Source: Chloroflexota bacterium (GTDB taxonomy: Bacteria > Chloroflexota > Limnocylindria > Limnocylindrales > CSP1-4). From it: DNA of 64,000 nt. The stretch spans positions 10,010 through 74,009 of the forward strand of contig JAJZRG010000009.1 of assembly GCA_021802825.1 (NCBI GenBank), in the 5' to 3' direction. The position numbers were made by a program, and so were the translations under genes. Below the pieces are notes generated by a model. That model did not search any database. It saw nothing but the letters and a program-made list of their open reading frames with translations, and was not told where the DNA came from. Within the stretch, counting starts at the first letter, position 1, and every line of letters begins with the position of its first letter. This document shows positions 48,648-58,265 of the stretch, piece by piece.

Positions 48648-49400
48648 GTGATCACCCGCTTCCGGACCGCCGGCGATCCGGCTGTACTTGGAGGCATGGC
48701 ACCGCTATCGCCGTCATCCCAACAACGCCCTCCCTGCAGCCGCGTCGCGCTCCTGGGCACCATCGGCCACCTGCACGCCGAGGCTGTCAGGTATGACCTC
48801 GAGCGCCTGCGCAGGCTCGTCGAGACCCTCGAGCCCGATCTCCTCGCGGTCGAGGTCGAGCCCGACGCCTGGGAATCGGGCGACCCCGACCAACTGCCGC
48901 TCGAGGTCCGCGAGGCGCTGGCGCCGGCCAGCCGGCTGACCGACACCGTCGTCGTTCCCCTCGGAGCCCAGGCGCGCCTTGAGCCGGCGACCGATGACGG
49001 CGGGCTGCTTCGCCTTCGGACGGCCCTCATTCGGGGGGCCGACGACCTGCTGAACGCCATCGCCCGGGCCGTCGACAGTCCGGCCGTGGTGAGCCGGGGT
49101 GCCTACGCCCATTTCTGCGGTCAGGTGTGCAGCTTGGAGGCCGCCGCGGCCGGCAACACGAGCCGCGCCGCCTGGGCGCGCGCCAACGATCGGATCATCG
49201 AGCGGCTGCGCGAGGTCGTGTCCGCGAACCCCGGAAGCCGAGTGCTCCTCGCGGTCAACTGCCGACGGGTCCACCTGCTGACGCGCAGGTTGCAGGGCCT
49301 GGCCGACGAGATCGAGCTCGTCCGCTTCGAAGATCTCAACCCCCTCAACCCGATGCCGTCTCTGCGTTCCGCGCGAGCGGAGGAAGGAGCGACTCGATGA
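48648..49400 (+). CDS. Hypothetical protein (possible TraB/GumN-like fold)
   Basis: GTG 48648 or ATG 48696. VALLGTIGHLHAE resembles the LGT.H motif of the TraB/GumN family. Otherwise unassigned. Confidence 0.4.
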   Translation: MITRFRTAGDPAVLGGMAPLSPSSQQRPPCSRVALLGTIGHLHAEAVRYDLERLRRLVETLEPDLLAVEVEPDAWESGDPDQLPLEVREALAPASRLTDTVVVPLGAQARLEPATDDGGLLRLRTALIRGADDLLNAIARAVDSPAVVSRGAYAHFCGQVCSLEAAAAGNTSRAAWARANDRIIERLREVVSANPGSRVLLAVNCRRVHLLTRRLQGLADEIELVRFEDLNPLNPMPSLRSARAEEGATR

Positions 49401-50998
49401 CAGTGAACCGAATCCCTGACGTGGTGCCCAACGCAGGCGTCACGGCCGCGACGCTCCGGCGCCGGTGGTGGGCACTCGGCGCCCTTTCGCTCGCCATGCT
49501 CGTGCTGACCCTGGACGTGACGGTGCTCACGGTCGCGCTGCCCACCCTGGCTGGTGCGCTCGACGCATCCGAGTCGGACATGCAGTGGTTCTTCACGGCC
49601 TACCTTGTGGCCCTCGTGGCTGCGGTACTGCCGATAGGTCTCGTTGGCGATCGCTTCGGGCGCAAGCCGCTGCTCGTCGCGGGCCTCATCGCGTTCGGGG
49701 CGGGCTCGGCGGCCCTGGCCTACGCCCCGAGCGCGGCGGCGTTCATCGGCCTGCGCGTCGGGCTGGGGCTCGCCGCCGCGGCGATCATCGTCATGACGAT
49801 CTCGTTCATCACTGTGCTCTTCGACGAGGCCGAGCGGCCCCGGGCGATCGGGATCTGGGGGGCCGCCAACTTCCTGGGCCTGCCCCTCGGCCCCATCCTC
49901 GGCGGCTGGATCCTGTCCAACGCCTGGTGGGGCTGGATCTTCCTCATCAACGTCCCGATCGCGCTCGTCGCGCTTGCGGCGGTCCTGTCGTTCATGCCCG
50001 GGTCGCGGGCGGATCGTGCACCCGGCCTCGACATCGGCGGGGTCCTCCTCTCGGCAGGAGGTCTGGCAGCCCTGATGTACGGCATCATCGAGGCGGGCGA
50101 CAACGGCTGGGGCGACCCGACCGCGATCGGGTTCATGGCGGGCGGCCTGGTCGTGCTGGTCCTGTTCGCGCTGTGGGAGGCGTGGCTCACCGCCCGCTCT
50201 GGCGCCTCGGCGCTCGTCGACCTGTCGCTGTTCCGGTCGCCCAGCTTCACCTGGGGGACGCTCCTCACTGCGTTCGGACTCTTCGGCCTCTACGGCGTCC
50301 TCTTCGTGCTGCCCCAGTACACCCAGGCGATCATGGGGCTCGACCCCCAGGGCTCCGGCCTCCGGCTGCTGCCGGCCATCGGCGGGCTGGTCGTGGGCGC
50401 CGTGACGGCCCACCGCGTGGCTGCCCGGATCGGCGCCAAGCTCAGCGTCGCTGCCGGCTTCGCCGTACTCGCCGCTGGCCTGGCGCTGGGCGCGACGATG
50501 ACGGCCTCGAGCGGCGACGGGCCCATGGCGGCCTGGTCGTTCGTCGCTGGACTTGGCGGCGGCTTGGGTTTCGCCACCGCCGCGTCGGCCGCCCTGGTCG
50601 AGCTGTCGGCCGAGCGCAGCGGCGTCGGCTCGGCCGTCCTCCAGGCGATCAACAAGCTCGCCCCCGCGCTTGGGGCGGCCATCCTGGGTAGCGTCCTCAA
50701 TGCCACCTATCAGGCTCAGGTGCACGTGGCTGGGCTGCCGGCGCAGGCGGTTGACGCCACCCAGAGCAGCGTGTTCGGCGGGCTGTCGGTCGCCCAGCGG
50801 CTGGGCTCTGCCACCCACCTCGCGTCGGTCCAGGCGGCGTTCGTGGCCGGGCTCGACGACGCCCTCCGCGTTGGTGCGCTCGTGGTCCTGATTGGCGTCC
50901 TGGTGGCACTGGCGCTCCTTCCGGCAGGCGAGTCTGAGCGCCGGAGAGTCGCGCAGCCGGGTCGGAACGAAGCCGCATCAGCGAACCCGCCCGGATGA
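49397..50998 (+). CDS. MFS transporter, DHA2 (EmrB/QacA, 14-TM) type
   Basis: ATG 49397 (ATGA overlap). LPIGLVGDRFGRKPLL (motif A), GWIFLINVPIALVALAAV, 14 predicted TM helices. Confidence 0.85.
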   Translation: MTVNRIPDVVPNAGVTAATLRRRWWALGALSLAMLVLTLDVTVLTVALPTLAGALDASESDMQWFFTAYLVALVAAVLPIGLVGDRFGRKPLLVAGLIAFGAGSAALAYAPSAAAFIGLRVGLGLAAAAIIVMTISFITVLFDEAERPRAIGIWGAANFLGLPLGPILGGWILSNAWWGWIFLINVPIALVALAAVLSFMPGSRADRAPGLDIGGVLLSAGGLAALMYGIIEAGDNGWGDPTAIGFMAGGLVVLVLFALWEAWLTARSGASALVDLSLFRSPSFTWGTLLTAFGLFGLYGVLFVLPQYTQAIMGLDPQGSGLRLLPAIGGLVVGAVTAHRVAARIGAKLSVAAGFAVLAAGLALGATMTASSGDGPMAAWSFVAGLGGGLGFATAASAALVELSAERSGVGSAVLQAINKLAPALGAAILGSVLNATYQAQVHVAGLPAQAVDATQSSVFGGLSVAQRLGSATHLASVQAAFVAGLDDALRVGALVVLIGVLVALALLPAGESERRRVAQPGRNEAASANPPG

Positions 50999-51238
50999 GC
51001 GCCCCAGGGCCGTGTCGCGTTGAAGGCCTTGCGACGGCCGGAACGGCCGGCTCGCCGACCGCGTTTTCCTGGATTGAGCGGGCCCACCACCGCTACTACC
51101 GCGCCCTCGCGCACCGACCCCCGAGCTCGTCGGCTCCCGTTTGCGCTAGCCGGGTCGACGAGGATCACTGGGGCACATGCCCTGTCGCAGCGATGCCGCG
51201 CGCCTCGGGCTCGCCGTGACGTAGGAACCGGCTCGAGT

Positions 51239-51253
51239 CTCATCTGCGGCTCA
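51239..51253 (+). promoter_or_regulatory. Two phased CTCAT repeats upstream of the P1B-ATPase
   Basis: CTCAT at 51239 and 51250. About 105 nt upstream of GTG 51358. Confidence 0.35.
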
Positions 51254-51357
51254 TCGCGCGGCCAGCTGAGCGCGCCATGATCTCCCCGACCGCCCCGATT
51301 CGTAACACCTGTTCAAGGGACGGACAATCTCCCCACAGAGAGCCAGTGGAGCACGCC

Positions 51358-53892
51358 GTGACCAGCCGTGTGTTTGAGGCCGGAGGCCTCCTGCGAGCGA
51401 GCAGCAGCGGAGGGCTCGAGGCATACCTGAAGCGCCAGAGCGGCATTGCGGAGGCGGAGGCGAACCCCGTCTCGCAGACGGTGACCGTCCGCTACGACGA
51501 ATCGATCCTGGAGGCCGACGATGTCCGGGCGCTGATCGAACGCTTCGGATGCTCGTGCGGTGGCGAGGTCGTCCCGTGCCACATCTGCCGCAATGAGCAG
51601 CCCGCGGTCATCGGAAGCGCCGTGCCTCGCGGCGCGACGCAGGTGCCGGCGGCGGGGCACGCGGGCCACGTGATGCCGACGTCGGTCGCTCCAGCACCGC
51701 CGCTCGATCGAGCAGTTGGGCACGACGGTCACGACATGATGGTCGCGCCCGCCGTCGAGCAGGCGGCTCACGCGATGGCGGTCCCGGCCGCCACCGAGCA
51801 CGCCGGTCACGCGATGCAGGTGCCAGGAGCCGCCGCACCGGCCCGGGGCGAGATGGCGCAGATGGCCCACGCGATGGGTCACGGCGGCGGGATGTCAATG
51901 GACGACATGGTGCGCGACATGCGGAAGCGGTTCCTCGTCGCGCTCGTCCTCGCGATCCCCATCTTCCTCTACTCGCCACTGGCGACCGAGGTCTTCGGCA
52001 TCCGACTCGCGACGCCATTCGGCATCGATCCGAACGTTCTGATGTTCCTCCTCGCGACGCCCGCCGTCGCCTGGAGCGGCCAGATCTTCTTCGTGGGGGC
52101 CTGGCGGGCGCTGCGCAACCGGACGCTCGACATGTCCGTCCTCGTCGCCCTCTCGGTCGGCAGCGGCTACCTGTTCAGCGTGGCCGCCACGTTCCTGTTC
52201 GCAGGCGAGGTGTTCTACGAGGCCTCGGTCGTGCTGCTGGCCTTCGTCCTGTTCGGCCACTGGCTCGAGATGCGGGCGCGGGCCGGCGCGTCCGATGCGA
52301 TCCGGGCCCTGCTCGACCTCGCGCCGCCCAAGGCGACCGTCATCCGGAACGGCGAGCCAGTCGAGGTCCCAACCGCCGAAGTCGTCCTCGACGACACAGT
52401 GTTGATCCGCCCCGGCGACAAGGTTCCCGTCGATGGCATCGTCCTCGAGGGTGCCTCGGCCGTCGACGAGTCGATGATCACCGGCGAGAGCGTCCCAGTC
52501 GAGAAGACGGTCGGCTCCAATGTGATCGGGGCGACGATCAACAAGACCGGCACCTTCCGGTTCCGGGCGACCAAGGTCGGCTCCGACACGGCCCTCGCCC
52601 AGATCGTCAAGCTCGTCCAGCTGGCCCAGAACTCCAAGGCACCTGCCCAGCGCCTGGCCGATCGGGCCGCGCAATGGCTCGTGGCCGCGGCTGTCGCCTT
52701 CGGCCTTCTGACCTTCGCCGGCTGGTACTGGCTCGGCGGCGCGACGTTCGTCTTCGCCCTGACCCTCGCGATCACGGTCGTCATCATCGCCTGCCCGGAT
52801 GCGCTGGGCCTGGCGACCCCGACCGCGATCATGGTCGGGACCGGCCTCGGCGCCCTCAACGGGATCCTGTTCAAGAACGCGACCGCGCTTGAGCAGGCGT
52901 CGAAGGTCGGCGCGGTGATCTTCGACAAGACGGGCACGCTCACGGTTGGCCAGCCAAGGGTTGTCGACGTCGTGGCCAGCTCCAGCCGGGTCATCGAGGA
53001 AGAGCTTCTCCGGCTCGCCGCGTCCGCCGAGGCGTCCAGCGAGCATCCGCTCGCGTCGGCCGTCGTCGACGCCGCGAAGGAGCGCGGGCTCGCCGTCGTC
53101 GATGCGCGCGACTTCAACGCCGTCCCTGGCCATGGGCTCGAGGCGAAGGTCGACGGCCGAGTCGTGGTTGTCGGGAACACCAAGCTGATGCGCGACCGCG
53201 CGATCGACTTCGGAGAACTCGGGGCCCGGGCGGATGAACTCGAGGGCGCCGGGCGCACGGTGGTCCGGGTCGCCGTCGACGGTGTGGCCGCCGGACTCGT
53301 CGCGATCGCCGACTCGCTGCGGCCCACCGCGAAGGAGACGATCGAGCGTCTCCACAACCTCGGCATTCAGGTCGCGATGCTGACCGGCGACAACCGGGCC
53401 ACCGCCGATCGGATCGCCGCGGAGCTCGGGCTCGACACGGTCTTCGCCGAGGTCCTGCCCGGCCAGAAGGCCGACAAGGTCAAGGAGCTGCAGAGGGCTG
53501 GGAAGCTCGTGGCGATGGTCGGCGACGGCATCAACGACGCGCCTGCGCTCGCCCAGGCGGACGTCGGCATCGCGATCGGCGCCGGGACCGACGTCGCCGT
53601 CGAGACCGCCGACGTCGTGCTCATGAAGAGCGACCCGGTCGACGTCCTGGGTGCGATCGCGCTGTCCCGCGCGACGGTCCGGAAGATGCGCCAGAACCTG
53701 TGGTGGGCCGTCGGCTACAACACGATCGCCTTTCCCATCGCTGCCGGGCTCTTCTATCCGTCGCTCGGCCTGCTCCTGCGGCCCGAGATCGCGGCGATCA
53801 GCATGGCCGGCAGCTCGTTCCTCGTCGCGGTCAACGCGCTGCTCCTCAAGCGCACGAGGCTCGAAGGGATCCGCCGCTATGGCAAGCAGTGA
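51358..53892 (+). CDS. P1B-type heavy-metal ATPase with Cys-less HMA, His/Met-rich linker and CPD transmembrane motif
   Basis: ORF from 51277, but third-position GC is low until GTG 51346/51358 (GGAG SD before 51358). [25 protein letters not shown]....P and MAGSS motifs. TM4 reads IIACPDALG (codons tgc ccg gat). N-terminal [22 protein letters not shown] is HMA-like without CxxC. Confidence 0.9.
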
Positions 53893-55210
53893 CACGATCG
53901 AACCCGCCCCGGTTCCGGTCCGCCGCCGGAAAGCCAGGCTCGCGGCTGCCCGCGCGGTCGTCGCCATCCTCGGTCAAGCGCTCCCTTCCGACGGGCAGCT
54001 CGAGCTGGTCCTGGCGGAGGACGCGCCGGTGCTGCGGACCGCGCTCGTGCGCGTCGTCGTCAACGGCCCCGATGCACTCGCCCGCCTCGTCTGGCCGCCT
54101 TCACCGGACGCCTTCGGCGAGGCGTATCTGCGGGGCGACATCGACATCGAGGGCGACATCTGGACGGCGATCGCGGCCGGGCGCTCGCTCGACCTGCGGC
54201 GTCTCACGCGCTCGCTCCCCCGTCTCGCCCGCCTGACCCTCCAGCTCCGAAGCGGAGCGGGTCCGGCGCCCACCCTCCGACGCCGAGCGCGTCTCGACGG
54301 ACGCCGGCATTCTCGGGCGCGGGACATGGCCGCCGTCCGCTTCCACTACGACGTCGGCAACGAGTTCTACGCCCTGTGGCTCGACGAGCGGCTCGCATAC
54401 TCGTGCGCCTACTTCGAGACGCCTGAGACCACGCTCGACGCCGCGCAGGAGGCGAAGCTCGACCTCATCTGTCGCAAGCTGCGACTGCAGCCGGGCATGC
54501 GCCTGCTCGACATCGGCTGCGGGTGGGGCTCGCTCGTCGCGTTCGCGGCGGAGCGGTACGGCGTCGACGCGTCCGGGGTGACCCTGAGCCAGGCCCAGGC
54601 GAACTGGGCCGGCGAGGACCTCCGGCGGCGCGGGCTGGACGGACGGGCGCGCATCCTCGTCCGCGATTACCGCGACCTCGACGGCCTCGGGCCGTTCGAC
54701 GCCGTCGCCTCGGTCGGGATGTTCGAGCATGTCGGCCGCGAGCACTTGGCCGACTACTTCGGCGCCGCCCTCCGGTCGCTCCGGCCGGGCGGCCTGTTCG
54801 TCAACCACGGCATCGCCACGACCGAGACCGGCGGGGCCCTTCGGCCTCGCTGGCTGCGCTTCGGCGATGGCGGCTTCGTCGGCCGCTACGTCTTCCCCGA
54901 CGGCGAGCTCGTGACGGTCGAAGAGGCGATCGCCGTCGCCCGCCGGGCCGGGTTCGAGCTCCTGGGCGTGCAGCGCCTGCGGCCCCACTACGCGCTGACG
55001 CTCAAGGCCTGGGTCGGTCGGCTCGAGGCAAACGCCGACCGGGCCCGCGAACTGGTGGGCGAGGAGGTCTTCCGGACCTGGCGACTCTACATGGCCGCGG
55101 CCCGGACGGGCTTCGAGGACGGCTCGCTCGACGTCGCCCAGCTCCTCCTTGCCCGGCCTGACCATCGCGGCCCGGCTCAGCTTCCCCTGAGACCGTGGTG
55201 GCCGGGCTGA
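53879..55210 (+). CDS. Cyclopropane-fatty-acyl-phospholipid synthase-family SAM methyltransferase
   Basis: ATG 53879 (MASSDTIEP) overlaps the ATPase end by 14 nt. [43 protein letters not shown]. Confidence 0.85.
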
Positions 55211-55926
55211 CACCCAGGGACAGGCCTGGCTTCACGCCGACGGCCGTCGCTGTCGTCGCGTTCGGCGTCGCCTTCGGCTACGTCGAGGCGGCCGTGGTCG
55301 TCTACCTCCGCGCCGCCCTCGAGCTCGCTCCCGGGGCGGTCATGGCACAGAGTGTCGGCAGCTTCGGGACGTTCGAGGCCGTCGAGATCGCGCGCGAGCT
55401 GGCGACGCTGGCCATGATCGCGGCCGTCGGCACGCTCGCCGGGCGGACCCGGCTCGAGCGCCTCGCCTGGGCGGCGGTCGTCTTCGGCGCATGGGACATC
55501 GTCTACTACGTCGGCCTGCGCCTGGCCATCGGCTGGCCGCTGACCTTGGACTCGTGGGACGTCCTGTTCCTGGTCCCGACCCGCTGGGTCGGTCCCGTGT
55601 GGGCGCCGCTCGTCGTCACCGCGGCGCTCGTCGGGGCCGGGCTCGCGGCAGCCCGGCGCCTGCGGGCCGGGAGCCAGATTGCCGTGGGGCCTGTCCGGGC
55701 GACCGGCGCCCTCGCGGGCGGCCTCCTCGTCATCCTGAGCTTCCTGCTTCCCAACCAGGGCGGCTCGGGGCAATGGACCGCCTGGCCGGTCTTCTGGGTG
55801 GGCATGGCGCTCGCGGTTGTCGCAACGACGAGCGCGCTCACCGCTCGGCCGGGTGTTCCTTCGGATGGGGGCATGCCCTCCCAGCACGGATCCGGGCGCC
55901 GGCCGCTGGCCGGCTCCCCGGACTGA
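55195..55926 (+). CDS. Hypothetical polytopic membrane protein
   Basis: GTG 55195 overlaps the cfa-like end. 243 aa, 6-7 TM helices. No recognised motif. Confidence 0.45.
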   Translation: MVAGLTPRDRPGFTPTAVAVVAFGVAFGYVEAAVVVYLRAALELAPGAVMAQSVGSFGTFEAVEIARELATLAMIAAVGTLAGRTRLERLAWAAVVFGAWDIVYYVGLRLAIGWPLTLDSWDVLFLVPTRWVGPVWAPLVVTAALVGAGLAAARRLRAGSQIAVGPVRATGALAGGLLVILSFLLPNQGGSGQWTAWPVFWVGMALAVVATTSALTARPGVPSDGGMPSQHGSGRRPLAGSPD

Positions 55927-56089: not shown

Positions 56090-57025
56090 TCAGCCTCGGC
56101 CCGTGAACTCGACCGCGGGGCTCGCCTCGCGGCGAAGTGAGAGGAGCCCGATCCCGGCAAGCATGGCCGCGATCCCGGCATATTCGATTGGCTGCGGACG
56201 GTCGCCGGTCAGGATCCCGGACACGACGCCGACCACGGGAACCAGAAAGAGCGCGGCCCCCAGGCCTACCAGCGAGACCTGCTTCAGCAGCCAGAACCAG
56301 ACAACATAGGCGACACCCGTTCCGAGGACACCGAGGACGAGCAGCCCGAGAAGGGTCGCTGGCGACCAGTCCAGACTCGCCCATGGTTCGAGCAGCGCAC
56401 TGACCCCGAGGAGGATCGCGCCACCGAGCAGGAACTGGACGCTCGTCGTCAGGAGCAGGTCGACGCTCGACCCGAGCCGGCGCATGAGGAGCGTTCCGCC
56501 GGCTGGCGCTGCCGTCGCGAGCAGGGCCAGGGCTACGCCGTCCGGACTCGTGGCGCCTGAGCTCGTCGTTGCGACCATGACGACGCCCGCCATCGCGATG
56601 GCCAGGCCCGTCGCCGAGCGCCCCGAGATTCGTTCCCCGAAGAAGGCCCAGCCCGCTGCCGCGAGGACGACCGGTTGGCCTCCGGCCAGGATCGACGCGA
56701 CCGCTGCCTCCGCCCGCCCGGCCGCAAGGTACATCGCGCCGAACGCCACGGTGGCGTTCGCCAGGGCCAGGGGGATCACCAGACGCGTTGAAGGCAGACC
56801 CGATCTCCAGGGCCTCCAACCGAACGACCCTATCCCCGATCGTCTGGCTCGCTCGGGCCGCCGGGTGAGGAGGGCCCAGGAAGCGAGAACCGCGCCACCG
56901 ATCAGTGCCCGCAGCCCCGCCAGCAACAGAGGAGCCGGGGCCGGCAGTGACGCCTGGATGATCACGAAGCACAGCCCCCAGATGGCCGCCACGAACGCGG
57001 CCAGTCCTGCCGATCGAGCGGTCAT
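56090..57025 (-). CDS. EamA/DMT-family transporter
   Basis: ORF 56090..57115, ATG 57025 (MTARSAGLAAF), ATGA overlap with the YHS-EAL stop. 10 TM helices, duplicated EamA-like halves. Confidence 0.75.
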   Translation of the reverse strand: MTARSAGLAAFVAAIWGLCFVIIQASLPAPAPLLLAGLRALIGGAVLASWALLTRRPERARRSGIGSFGWRPWRSGLPSTRLVIPLALANATVAFGAMYLAAGRAEAAVASILAGGQPVVLAAAGWAFFGERISGRSATGLAIAMAGVVMVATTSSGATSPDGVALALLATAAPAGGTLLMRRLGSSVDLLLTTSVQFLLGGAILLGVSALLEPWASLDWSPATLLGLLVLGVLGTGVAYVVWFWLLKQVSLVGLGAALFLVPVVGVVSGILTGDRPQPIEYAGIAAMLAGIGLLSLRREASPAVEFTGRG

Positions 57026-58014
57026 TCCCTCGGGGCTCGCGGGGGCCGCTCTCCATTGAGGCCGAATGACCGGGCGCGGACGCGGTCGATGCCAGGGGCG
57101 GTGGCCAATGGCCATGGTCGACCGGGACGACCGACGGCATGCCCCTGGACGAGCATGTCCCGGCCGGCCCGAATCAGCAGATCCAGGTCGTCGAGGCGTT
57201 CGACGCCCTCGGCCACGAGCTGGGCACCGATCTCACCGACGAACGTCGCCATCGCCCGGACGAGCGCCTGGCGGGCATTGTCCCCGGTGAGGCCGCGGAT
57301 GATGCGCGCGTCGAGCTTGACGAAGTCCGGCGCAAGCTCCGTGATGTGGCGCATTGACGCGTACCCAGCGCCAGCGTCGTCGATCGCGATCCGGAAGCCT
57401 CGCGTTCGGTAAGGCTCGACCGCGGCGCGCAGGGCCTCGTAGTCAGCGACCTCGTCGCGTTCCGTCAGCTCCAGAACGAGCCGACGTGGCGTCACCGGAG
57501 TGGCAGCGAGCACAGCGGCGATCCTGGGATCCGCAAGCAGCAGCGGGCTCACGTTGAGCGACATGAAAGCGTCCGCCTCCGGAAGCCGACGCCCCGCGAC
57601 CTCGAGCTCCGTCGCGAGCGCGAGCGCCTCGAGCTCCGGCGCCAGGCCCGCCCGGGCTGCGAGCTGGAACCAGGCCTCCGGAGATTGGAGCGGGATGGGC
57701 GCGAACCTCGCCAGCGCCTCGTACCCGACGACCGCGCGGGTCTCGAGTGACACGATCGGCTGAAACGCGGGTCGGAGCAAATCCGGTCCGTCGAGCACGC
57801 GGCGGACGAGCTCCTCCGCCCGAGCCTCCTCATGCTGGGGGCCGCCGCCGAGGAACTCGTCGCGGTAGCCGCGCGAACAGAAGAAACGGAGCCGACCCTC
57901 GTCCTCAAGCGTGACCGAGCGCTCTCGATCGACTGCCATCCCGCAGACGGGATCGATGGCGATTGCTTCACCCTTGAAGGGCGATGGCTCGGTGGCTGGA
58001 GGAGGAGTCTTCAT
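57022..58014 (-). CDS. YHS-domain / EAL-domain fusion protein (putative metal-responsive c-di-GMP phosphodiesterase)
   Basis: ORF 57022..58260, ATG 58014 (MKTPPPATEP). N-terminus IDPVCGMAVDRERSVTLEDEGRLRFFCSRGY (YHS). EAL motifs then follow: GYEALARF, SLNVSP, LELTE, IDDAGAGYAS, VKLD, AEGVE, VQGHAVGRP. Confidence 0.8.
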   Translation of the reverse strand: MKTPPPATEPSPFKGEAIAIDPVCGMAVDRERSVTLEDEGRLRFFCSRGYRDEFLGGGPQHEEARAEELVRRVLDGPDLLRPAFQPIVSLETRAVVGYEALARFAPIPLQSPEAWFQLAARAGLAPELEALALATELEVAGRRLPEADAFMSLNVSPLLLADPRIAAVLAATPVTPRRLVLELTERDEVADYEALRAAVEPYRTRGFRIAIDDAGAGYASMRHITELAPDFVKLDARIIRGLTGDNARQALVRAMATFVGEIGAQLVAEGVERLDDLDLLIRAGRDMLVQGHAVGRPGRPWPLATAPGIDRVRARSFGLNGERPPRAPRE

Positions 58015-58064
58015 CGAGGCGCCTGAGGAGAACGGGTGACTGGATCCACGATCGGCCGACCGCC

Positions 58065-58090
58065 TGAGATGCACCTGAACGCCCCATGAG
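58065..58090 (-). promoter_or_regulatory. Phased YTCA-N7 array (x3) upstream of the YHS-EAL / EamA operon
   Basis: Top-strand TGAG 58065, TGAA 58076, TGAG 58087. Lies 51-76 nt upstream of ATG 58014. Confidence 0.5.
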
Positions 58091-58265
58091 GACGGGCCAA
58101 CGCCCAGGCCGGTGGTTGGCGGCGCCGTCCCGGTCGGCGCGGGACCGGCCCATGCCGATGAACGACAGGCTGTGTAGTATAGGCACGCACGGCCCGTCGC
58201 TCTTGTTCTCGGCGGGCCGCCGAATTCTGAAGCCCGCCCACCAGCCCCGGATGGAGGCACTTACC

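Follow-up and report, generated by a model that had tools for sequence, protein, structure and literature searches.

Which metal does a P1B-type ATPase carry when the metal-site motif of its fourth membrane helix (M4) reads Cys-Pro-Asp (CPD), that is, neither the CPC of CopA nor the CPH of CopB? The question is raised by a gene at 51358..53892 (+) in a 64,000-nt stretch of a Chloroflexota metagenome-assembled genome (contig JAJZRG010000009.1, positions 10,010 to 74,009), the whole of which is called here the window. A preliminary description made from the letters alone had read TGC CCG GAT at this site, and these are indeed the codons at 52792..52800 (+), which align column for column with the CPC of the solved CopA structures of Archaeoglobus fulgidus and Legionella pneumophila. 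We agree with it that CPD stands outside the classical CPC/CPH/SPC/PCP scheme. A “novel CPD motif” was nevertheless described in 2017, in a purely bioinformatic study, for three rhizobial Cu-ATPases (group VIc) that stand beside the CPH pumps (Cubillas et al., PMC5552934); the motif has thus been known since then, and the window gene is a further member of a large and widespread branch. Our comparisons suggest that it encodes an active P1B ATPase of the CPD branch of the CopB lineage, which probably exports copper from the cytoplasm; from the same comparisons, we infer the transported ion and the roles of the Asp and of the N-terminus.

The gene lies in an open frame that extends from an upstream ATG at 51277 to 53892 (+) and corresponds to 871 aa. 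The start codon is likely the GTG at 51358, which gives 844 aa plus the stop codon and matches the coordinate of the preliminary description. A GGAG Shine-Dalgarno sequence is found 6 nt before this GTG (51348..51351, +), the same GGAG-spacer-start layout precedes five orthologues or paralogues of the gene, and the homologue P0002 (97% identity) is likewise 844 aa long. The assignment to the P1B family is supported by profile matches, by the match to A. fulgidus CopA, and by an AlphaFold2 model. The protein has Pfam matches to the E1-E2_ATPase and HAD hydrolase domains and scores well above the cut-offs of both TIGR01525 (heavy-metal P1B; 629 bits vs. 346) and TIGR01511 (copper-translocating; 615 bits vs. 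397), while it remains far below that of the E. coli-type CopA equivalog model (556 bits vs. 1316). Its best solved relatives are copper pumps, namely A. fulgidus CopA (E 5e-173), L. pneumophila CopA, plant HMA4, and ATP7B. The AlphaFold2 model, built from a 60-sequence alignment, has a mean predicted local distance difference test (pLDDT) of 82 and a predicted template modelling score (pTM) of 0.75; its helices, like its Foldseek hits (4BBJ, 7R0G, and 3RFU), fit the eight-helix P1B membrane domain (MA, MB, and M1-M6), and its top structural matches are copper P1B ATPases. The TGES dephosphorylation loop of the A domain (52480..52491, +), the DKTGT phosphorylation site (52924..52938, +), the SEHPL nucleotide-binding motif of P1B ATPases (53038..53052, +), and the GDGINDAP hinge (53521..53544, +) are all invariant in the family alignment. 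The gene is an intact P1B-type ATPase gene in which all four P1B hallmark motifs are present.

The Asp of the motif is strictly conserved. CPD is read in all 121 close sequences, i.e., the window pump and 120 homologues of 79-97% identity retrieved from NCBI, ENA, JGI, and Logan assemblies, as well as in two paralogues of the same genome. In an exhaustive HMMER search over 1.84 billion representatives of 50%-identity clusters, the eight nearest representatives (52-78% identity) all carry CPD, after which come CPC (137) and CPH (5); in all the CPD-family sets that we inspected, the motif is invariant from 48% to 97% identity. When one genome per species was scanned for a back-translated 10-residue stretch, at least 120 genomes matched, and for 117 of 120 the CPD stretch lies within an open reading frame (ORF) that also has DKTGT. 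The phyla among the matches listed are Actinomycetota, Pseudomonadota, Chloroflexota, Patescibacteria, Gemmatimonadota, Acidobacteriota, Bacteroidota, Myxococcota, Armatimonadota, and Dormiibacterota, and the Asp is encoded by both GAT and GAC across the carriers. For contigs of mine-drainage, sludge, and bioreactor metagenomes, sequenced in independent runs, no difference is listed at 52798-52800; this is weak evidence because these contigs come from relatives (best word share 0.44). A sequencing error as the source of CPD is ruled out by the conservation in close homologues, cluster representatives, and species genomes. Neither an erroneous codon nor orthologues uniformly carrying CPH or CPC, the two outcomes that the preliminary description had asked to look for, were thus found.

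In order to place the pump within the P1B family, we used a maximum-likelihood tree of 160 pump cores (15 CPD and 5 CPH sequences), rooted on the P1B-4-like pumps of the same genome. All the CPD and CPH sequences fall in one clade (Shimodaira-Hasegawa-like approximate likelihood ratio test, SH-aLRT, 100), with the CPC pumps as its sister group. The CPH sequences are monophyletic (SH-aLRT 99); as for a possible paraphyly of the CPD pumps relative to them, the branching that bears on it has a support of only 58%. The preliminary description had pointed out that CPD is one nucleotide away from CPH, which fits a tree where the closest relatives of the CPD pumps are the CPH CopB pumps. A column-by-column comparison revealed eleven columns that are common to CPD and CPH pumps and not to CPC pumps, including the His, Trp, and Met of “GHWLEM” in M2 (52255..52272, +), four small or aliphatic residues of M3, and several residues elsewhere. 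In GHWxEM, the His and the Met are each present in 100% of the CPD pumps and in 5/5 CPH pumps, against 0% and 2%, respectively, of the CPC pumps. Within the metal site, CPD and CPH pumps differ by the Asp alone. Because of this common clade and these signature columns, the window pump is a member of the CopB lineage (former P1B-3) and not a variant of CopA. The motifs by which the classes are told apart agree in part: the pump has neither the CPC of CopA nor the CPH of CopB, it carries the CPD of group VIc, and it combines the grouping with CPH pumps (five sequences in the tree) with a His-rich N-terminus devoid of CxxC, as expected for CopB. The M6 motif of CopB in the Arguello scheme is MSxST, which the window pump does not match, as it reads MAGSS.

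The residues that surround the Asp are those of a copper pump. The M5 motif YNTIAFP (53716..53736, +) is of the Cu-type YN(x)4P and aligns with Y688 and N689 of L. pneumophila CopA (LpCopA), and the M6 motif MAGSS (53803..53817, +), also of the Cu type, aligns with M717 and S721. The Glu of the M2 signature GHWLEM is equivalent to the entry-site residue E205 of LpCopA, and the equivalents of the two other entry residues, M148 and D337, are kept, as is that of the exit residue E189. In the membrane site, the equivalents of C382, Y688, N689, M717, and S721 are all kept, and the sole change is C384 to Asp. The M5 Lys and M6 Asp of ZntA-type pumps and the HEGxT of P1B-4 were not found in the aligned M5/M6. 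All the invariants that the preliminary description had claimed around the CPD (YN....P, M..SS, TGES, DKTGT, and GDGINDAP) could therefore be located in the sequence. Its suggestion that substrate or direction may differ from those of classical CopA/CopB fares less well: no evidence was found for a different direction, the CopA entry and exit residues being all conserved, and a different substrate is less likely than copper, given the Cu-type M5/M6 and the CsoR and cop neighbours of the relatives.

These neighbours were looked for around CPD pump genes in other genomes. On plasmid pBBta01 of Bradyrhizobium BTAi1, a CsoR-type regulator, a copper oxidase, copC, and copD are found within ~9 kb of the homologue, and on Rhodococcus plasmids the CPD pump gene comes after genes for an HMA chaperone and another ATPase. 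A look-up of the surroundings of the Rubrobacter tropicus homologue yielded no record. For at least nine of the 50 genomes covered by a whole-genome search with a hidden Markov model, a CsoR-family gene lies at most 10 kb from the pump, to be compared with ~1% by chance (a rough estimate); this count includes only the cases with coordinates inside or next to the locus, several further cases being uncertain. A regular-expression search for CsoR in the loci was insensitive and gave 6 true matches. The C-H-C fingerprint of Cu(I) sensing CsoR proteins is present in 4 of the 5 CsoR genes inspected. One has to keep in mind that a 2020 review (PMC7558416) reports the re-assignment of the CPH CopB pumps themselves to Cu(I). 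Copper is thus the favoured ion on account of the Cu-type M5/M6 and entry/exit residues, the sisterhood with CopB, the copper neighbours of relatives, and the nearby CsoR genes.

The N-terminal region is the second unusual feature of the pump, and it is a trait of the family. The preliminary description had proposed an HMA-like fold without Cys, and an HMA-like (ferredoxin-fold) domain is indeed found at 51361..51570 (+), with a Pfam match of 20.7 bits that stays under the 24.8-bit cut-off. AlphaFold2 predicts for residues 1-71 (pLDDT 67-94) the order beta-alpha-beta-beta-alpha, with a strand at 2-7, a helix at 14-25, strands at 30-36 and 41-46, and a helix at 53-63; GGLLRASS, devoid of Cys, fills the loop where GMTCxxC would sit in the HMA fold. 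Among the 82 full-length CPD pumps taken from the species-genome scan for motif counts, just one has a CxxC at this fold. A 15-residue Cys/His cluster directly follows the fold (51544..51588, +), a conserved element of the CPD family that the preliminary description had overlooked. It occurs at this place in 49/82 pumps, 41 of which fit the consensus CGxHCxGxxxPxHxC; the window pump and its Limnocylindria-like relatives have a variant of this consensus, which in the window pump comprises C92, C94, C101, H102, and C104 in 871-aa numbering. C67 (844-aa numbering, as for the residues below) is conserved at 90% or more in 60 diverse CPD pumps. This cluster is the obvious candidate for a cytoplasmic metal site replacing CxxC.

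Then comes a disordered linker rich in Ala, Gly, Met, Pro, and His, with (E)HAGHAM-type repeats (51589..51846, +). Residues 72-163 have a pLDDT below 50, and Tandem Repeats Finder (TRF) detects a 39-nt unit present in 2.5 copies at 51720-51816, so that the His/Met-rich repeat linker proposed earlier is borne out by both the repeat and the predicted disorder. The number of repeats differs between close homologues, and the N-terminal region of the window pump contains 12 His and 9 Met. The linker is followed by a conserved pre-membrane motif of 29 residues leading to helix MA (51847..51933, +), apparent in the family alignment in the form “MGHG..MSM..MV.DMR.RF”, where H175, M184, D187, M188, R189, R191, and F192 are invariant or at least 90% conserved; MGH[GAS] is found in 53/82 and M..DMR.RF in 76/82 of the full-length pumps. 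In the AlphaFold2 model, a short helix over “MAQMAHAM” precedes helix MA. The Cys-less HMA fold, the Cys/His cluster, the His/Met-rich linker, and the MGHG motif are family traits. The architecture shared by CPD pumps (HMA-like fold, Cys/His cluster, and MGHG..DMRxRF) is defined in the present analysis and not in PMC5552934; the window pump has all three elements, with its cluster in the lineage variant.

If these residues work as their equivalents in CopA, the metal would arrive at a cytoplasmic entry platform, to which MB contributes the Met of “LDMSV”, M2 the Glu of “GHWLEM”, and M3 the Asp of “RLAD”, and would then be occluded in the membrane by Cys506 and Asp508 of the CPD motif (M4), a Tyr and an Asn of M5, and a Met and a Ser of M6. 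Asp508 would stand where CopA has its second Cys and CopB its His, as a third ligand or as a gating residue. Phosphorylation of the DKTGT Asp by ATP and the change from E1P to E2P would open the site to the outside; the exit route of the metal would run past the M2 Glu conserved in “FYEA”, with TGES as the catalyst of the dephosphorylation. The N-terminus probably captures the metal and regulates the pump, like the His-rich head of CopB.

Several points weigh against copper export by this pump. We found no report of a CPD pump assay in the literature, where the bioinformatic study of 2017 (PMC5552934) is the single one that we found to mention a CPD motif in P1B ATPases. In the window, no metal sensor gene is adjacent, the closest CsoR-like candidate being a weak match (34 bits) at a distance of ~44 kb, and the immediate neighbours are not copper-specific (a DHA2-family MFS efflux protein, a cyclopropane-fatty-acid (CFA)-synthase-like methyltransferase, and a membrane protein without family match). 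Some relatives in Proteobacteria adjoin ppk2, MFS, LemA, and TPM genes instead of cop genes. As a carboxylate is a harder ligand than a thiolate or an imidazole, transport of Cu(II) or another divalent ion is also conceivable.

The last point leads to the alternative that survives best, although we consider it unlikely: the Asp would alter the chemistry of the pump, which would carry a harder or divalent ion (Cu(II), Zn, Co, Pb, Fe, Mn), or Cu(I) with another stoichiometry or an obligatory proton counter-transport, and would form a distinct P1B subgroup. The Asp is strictly invariant over a deep clade, with no mixing of Cys, His, and Asp, which points to a specific role more than to a substitution that is simply tolerated. 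A carboxylate, the Glu of PEGL, also follows the M4 Pro in Ca and Na/K pumps. The proteobacterial relatives beside ppk2, MFS, LemA, and TPM would fit as well, and the genome already has four CPC CopA genes, to which extra CPD copies might add another capability. The M5 YN(x)4P, the M6 M(x)2SS, and the CopA entry/exit residues are, however, of the Cu(I)-pump type, the aligned M5/M6 lack the features of ZntA and P1B-4, the sister CPH pumps are assigned to Cu(I), and Cu-type CsoR and cop genes stand beside many relatives.

An extended form of this alternative seems to us equally doubtful. In it, the CPD pumps would be a distinct subgroup whose M4 carboxylate, together with the CGxHC...HxC site, would give a “thiol-sparing” metal path for the export of Cu(II) or divalent ions or for proton-coupled Cu(I) export; in the Limnocylindria-like lineage, the pump and its co-transcribed CFA-synthase-like lipid methyltransferase would then make up a membrane-protection module.

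Still less probable is a low-rate copper pump of the CopA2/CcoI/FixI class that would supply membrane or extracytoplasmic cuproenzymes instead of serving detoxification. A gene for COX1, the subunit I of haem-copper oxidases, lies directly upstream of the pump gene in one orthologous contig, with cytochrome b genes nearby, and the several CPC CopA genes of the genome could cover detoxification; the COX1 neighbour was seen, however, in only one of the contexts inspected, and relatives are often found on plasmids beside resistance genes. Near-identical DNA occurs in mine-drainage, sludge, and bioreactor metagenomes, the first two of which speak against a role in cuproenzyme supply. The distribution is patchy: 28 of the 201 genomes that represent the class have the CPD motif, but the seven other genomes from the genus all lack it. 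Such a pattern is more readily expected of an accessory resistance gene than of a housekeeping assembly factor; the gene is probably accessory and horizontally acquired. Finally, a sequencing or assembly error or a decaying pseudogene is negligible as an explanation: the only context for it is a metagenome-assembled genome whose contamination is estimated at 4.4%, no supporting point was found, and against it stand the two paralogues and the 120 close homologues, independent and drawn from several sources, that have the same motif, as well as the intact catalytic motifs and a frame open across 844 aa.

With copper export by a CPD pump of the CopB lineage retained as the preferred reading, we compared the window pump with the closest known systems. 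It resembles the CPD Cu-ATPases of Rhizobiales (PMC5552934) in its CPD, its M5 YN(x)4P, its M(x)2SS-type M6, and its position beside CPH pumps; the Bradyrhizobium BTAi1 plasmid homologue shares 57% identity with it, from the HMA-like domain through the C-terminus. It differs from them in having MAGSS instead of MSGSS in M6 (among the 82 full-length CPD pumps, MSGSS is the majority form with 55/82 and MAGSS is found in 3/82), a variant Cys/His cluster in place of CGxHCxGxxxPxHxC, a linker richer in His and Met than the “poor His content” of those pumps, a Chloroflexota (Limnocylindria-like) host, and an operon with a CFA-synthase-like methyltransferase gene. With the CPH CopB pumps of Enterococcus hirae, A. 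fulgidus, and Sphaerobacter thermophilus, it shares one clade, the M2 GHWxEM and M3 columns, and a His-rich cytoplasmic N-terminus without a CxxC domain. Unlike CopB, it has an Asp for the His of CPH, a folded Cys-less HMA-like domain and a Cys/His cluster before the His/Met-rich region, and, after CPx, ALGLATPTA as in CopA instead of ALGLA(I/V)P(L/V)V. The CPC CopA pumps of A. fulgidus (3J09/7R0G) and L. pneumophila (3RFU) are its best matches among solved structures (45-48% core identity) and have the same eight-helix architecture and the same entry, exit, M5, and M6 residues; the window pump differs from them by the Asp in place of the second Cys of CPC, by the absence of the GMTCxxC domain, and by its position outside the CPC clade. 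The lineage-specific Cys cluster, the recurrent link with CFA-synthase-like genes, and the M2/M3 signature common with CopB are new here.

Downstream of the pump gene, a cyclopropane-fatty-acid-synthase-like methyltransferase is encoded at 53879..55210 (+), overlapping the end of the ATPase gene by 14 nt (Pfam CMAS, E 5e-93; the NCBIfam CfaB-like match, 348 bits, is under the equivalog cut-off). The two genes are probably co-transcribed. The apparent third gene of the operon (55195..55926, +), which starts before the methyltransferase gene has ended, codes for a 243-aa multi-pass hydrophobic protein without Pfam or NCBIfam match; the overlaps suggest translational coupling. The same gene order is found in the orthologous contigs L011-L013, with an unannotated gene of 239-240 aa in third place. 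In orthologous contigs, the three-gene block is followed by two small genes for YHS (putative metal-binding) domains and a Lit gene, which are missing from the window. For the paralogue on contig C68 of the same genome, the ATPase gene is followed by a methyltransferase gene (C68:11221-12462) and a YHS gene.

Among 117 distant loci, a CMAS-like gene adjoins the CPD pump in six (L022, L030, L042, L047, L105, and L106), for ~0.5 expected by chance according to a rough estimate; in Vulcaniibacterium gelatinicum (L106), ATPase and methyltransferase share one open frame, an apparent fusion. This adjacency possibly ties metal export to membrane-lipid modification. The genes for the 243-aa protein and the upstream MFS protein were not found beside the distant CPD pumps at these 117 loci, and ppk2, LemA, TPM, MBL, and DUF305 neighbours are each found in a few of them. 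On plasmid p1-T1 of Acidovorax sp. T1 (L136, 289-13977), a block comprises genes for MerR, ppk2, the CPD ATPase, an MFS protein, LemA, two TPM proteins, and an MBL-fold hydrolase, as well as thymidine-phosphorylase-like, PRPP-synthetase-like, and trypsin-like peptidase genes, and similar blocks are found in L047, L051, and L114, also from Betaproteobacteria. This ppk2/TPM block is a mobile stress or metal island.

Upstream of the pump gene, no sigma-70-like promoter or terminator was detected in 50900-51420. An imperfect palindrome of 30 nt is present at 51251-51280, which is not conserved in the orthologous upstream regions. A partly conserved element, ACGACAG...GACAAT, lies at 51290-51335, ~25-70 nt before the start (~40-70 nt in some orthologues), and is also found in L011, in L032, where it shows dyad symmetry, and before the paralogue on C68; a role as promoter or operator is conceivable. 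Elsewhere in the window, upstream of the gene for the DHA2-family MFS efflux protein, there is a 250-aa ORF without Pfam or NCBIfam match (48648-49400, +). Downstream of an EamA transporter gene, an EAL-domain (c-di-GMP phosphodiesterase) gene (57022-58260, -) has a weak N-terminal YHS match of 21.9 bits, and this YHS-EAL gene is also present in the orthologous contig L011.

Of the ten P1B ATPases in the 3.9-Mb host genome, four are CPC CopA pumps with GMTCASC and three are CPD paralogues (78-82% mutual identity); the other three are P1B-4-like, with APC or SPC. P1B pump or YHS genes were located on contigs C11, C20, C48, C49, C63, C66, C68, and C78; the genome has 12 YHS domain matches, several of which adjoin P1B pump genes, one being that of the CPD paralogue operon on C68; this counts in favour of the copper reading.

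By itself, the window copy brings no new principle and is one more member of the branch in a metal-pump-rich genome. The CPx motif of M4 is, however, the main sequence marker for assigning the metal specificity of P1B pumps, and CPD is a third strictly conserved variant of it, which spans at least 120 species, many phyla, and many plasmids. A characterised CPD pump would reveal if the coupling, the ion selectivity, or the preferred oxidation state is altered when an oxygen ligand occupies this position, and thousands of genes labelled “heavy metal translocating P-type ATPase” could then be annotated correctly.

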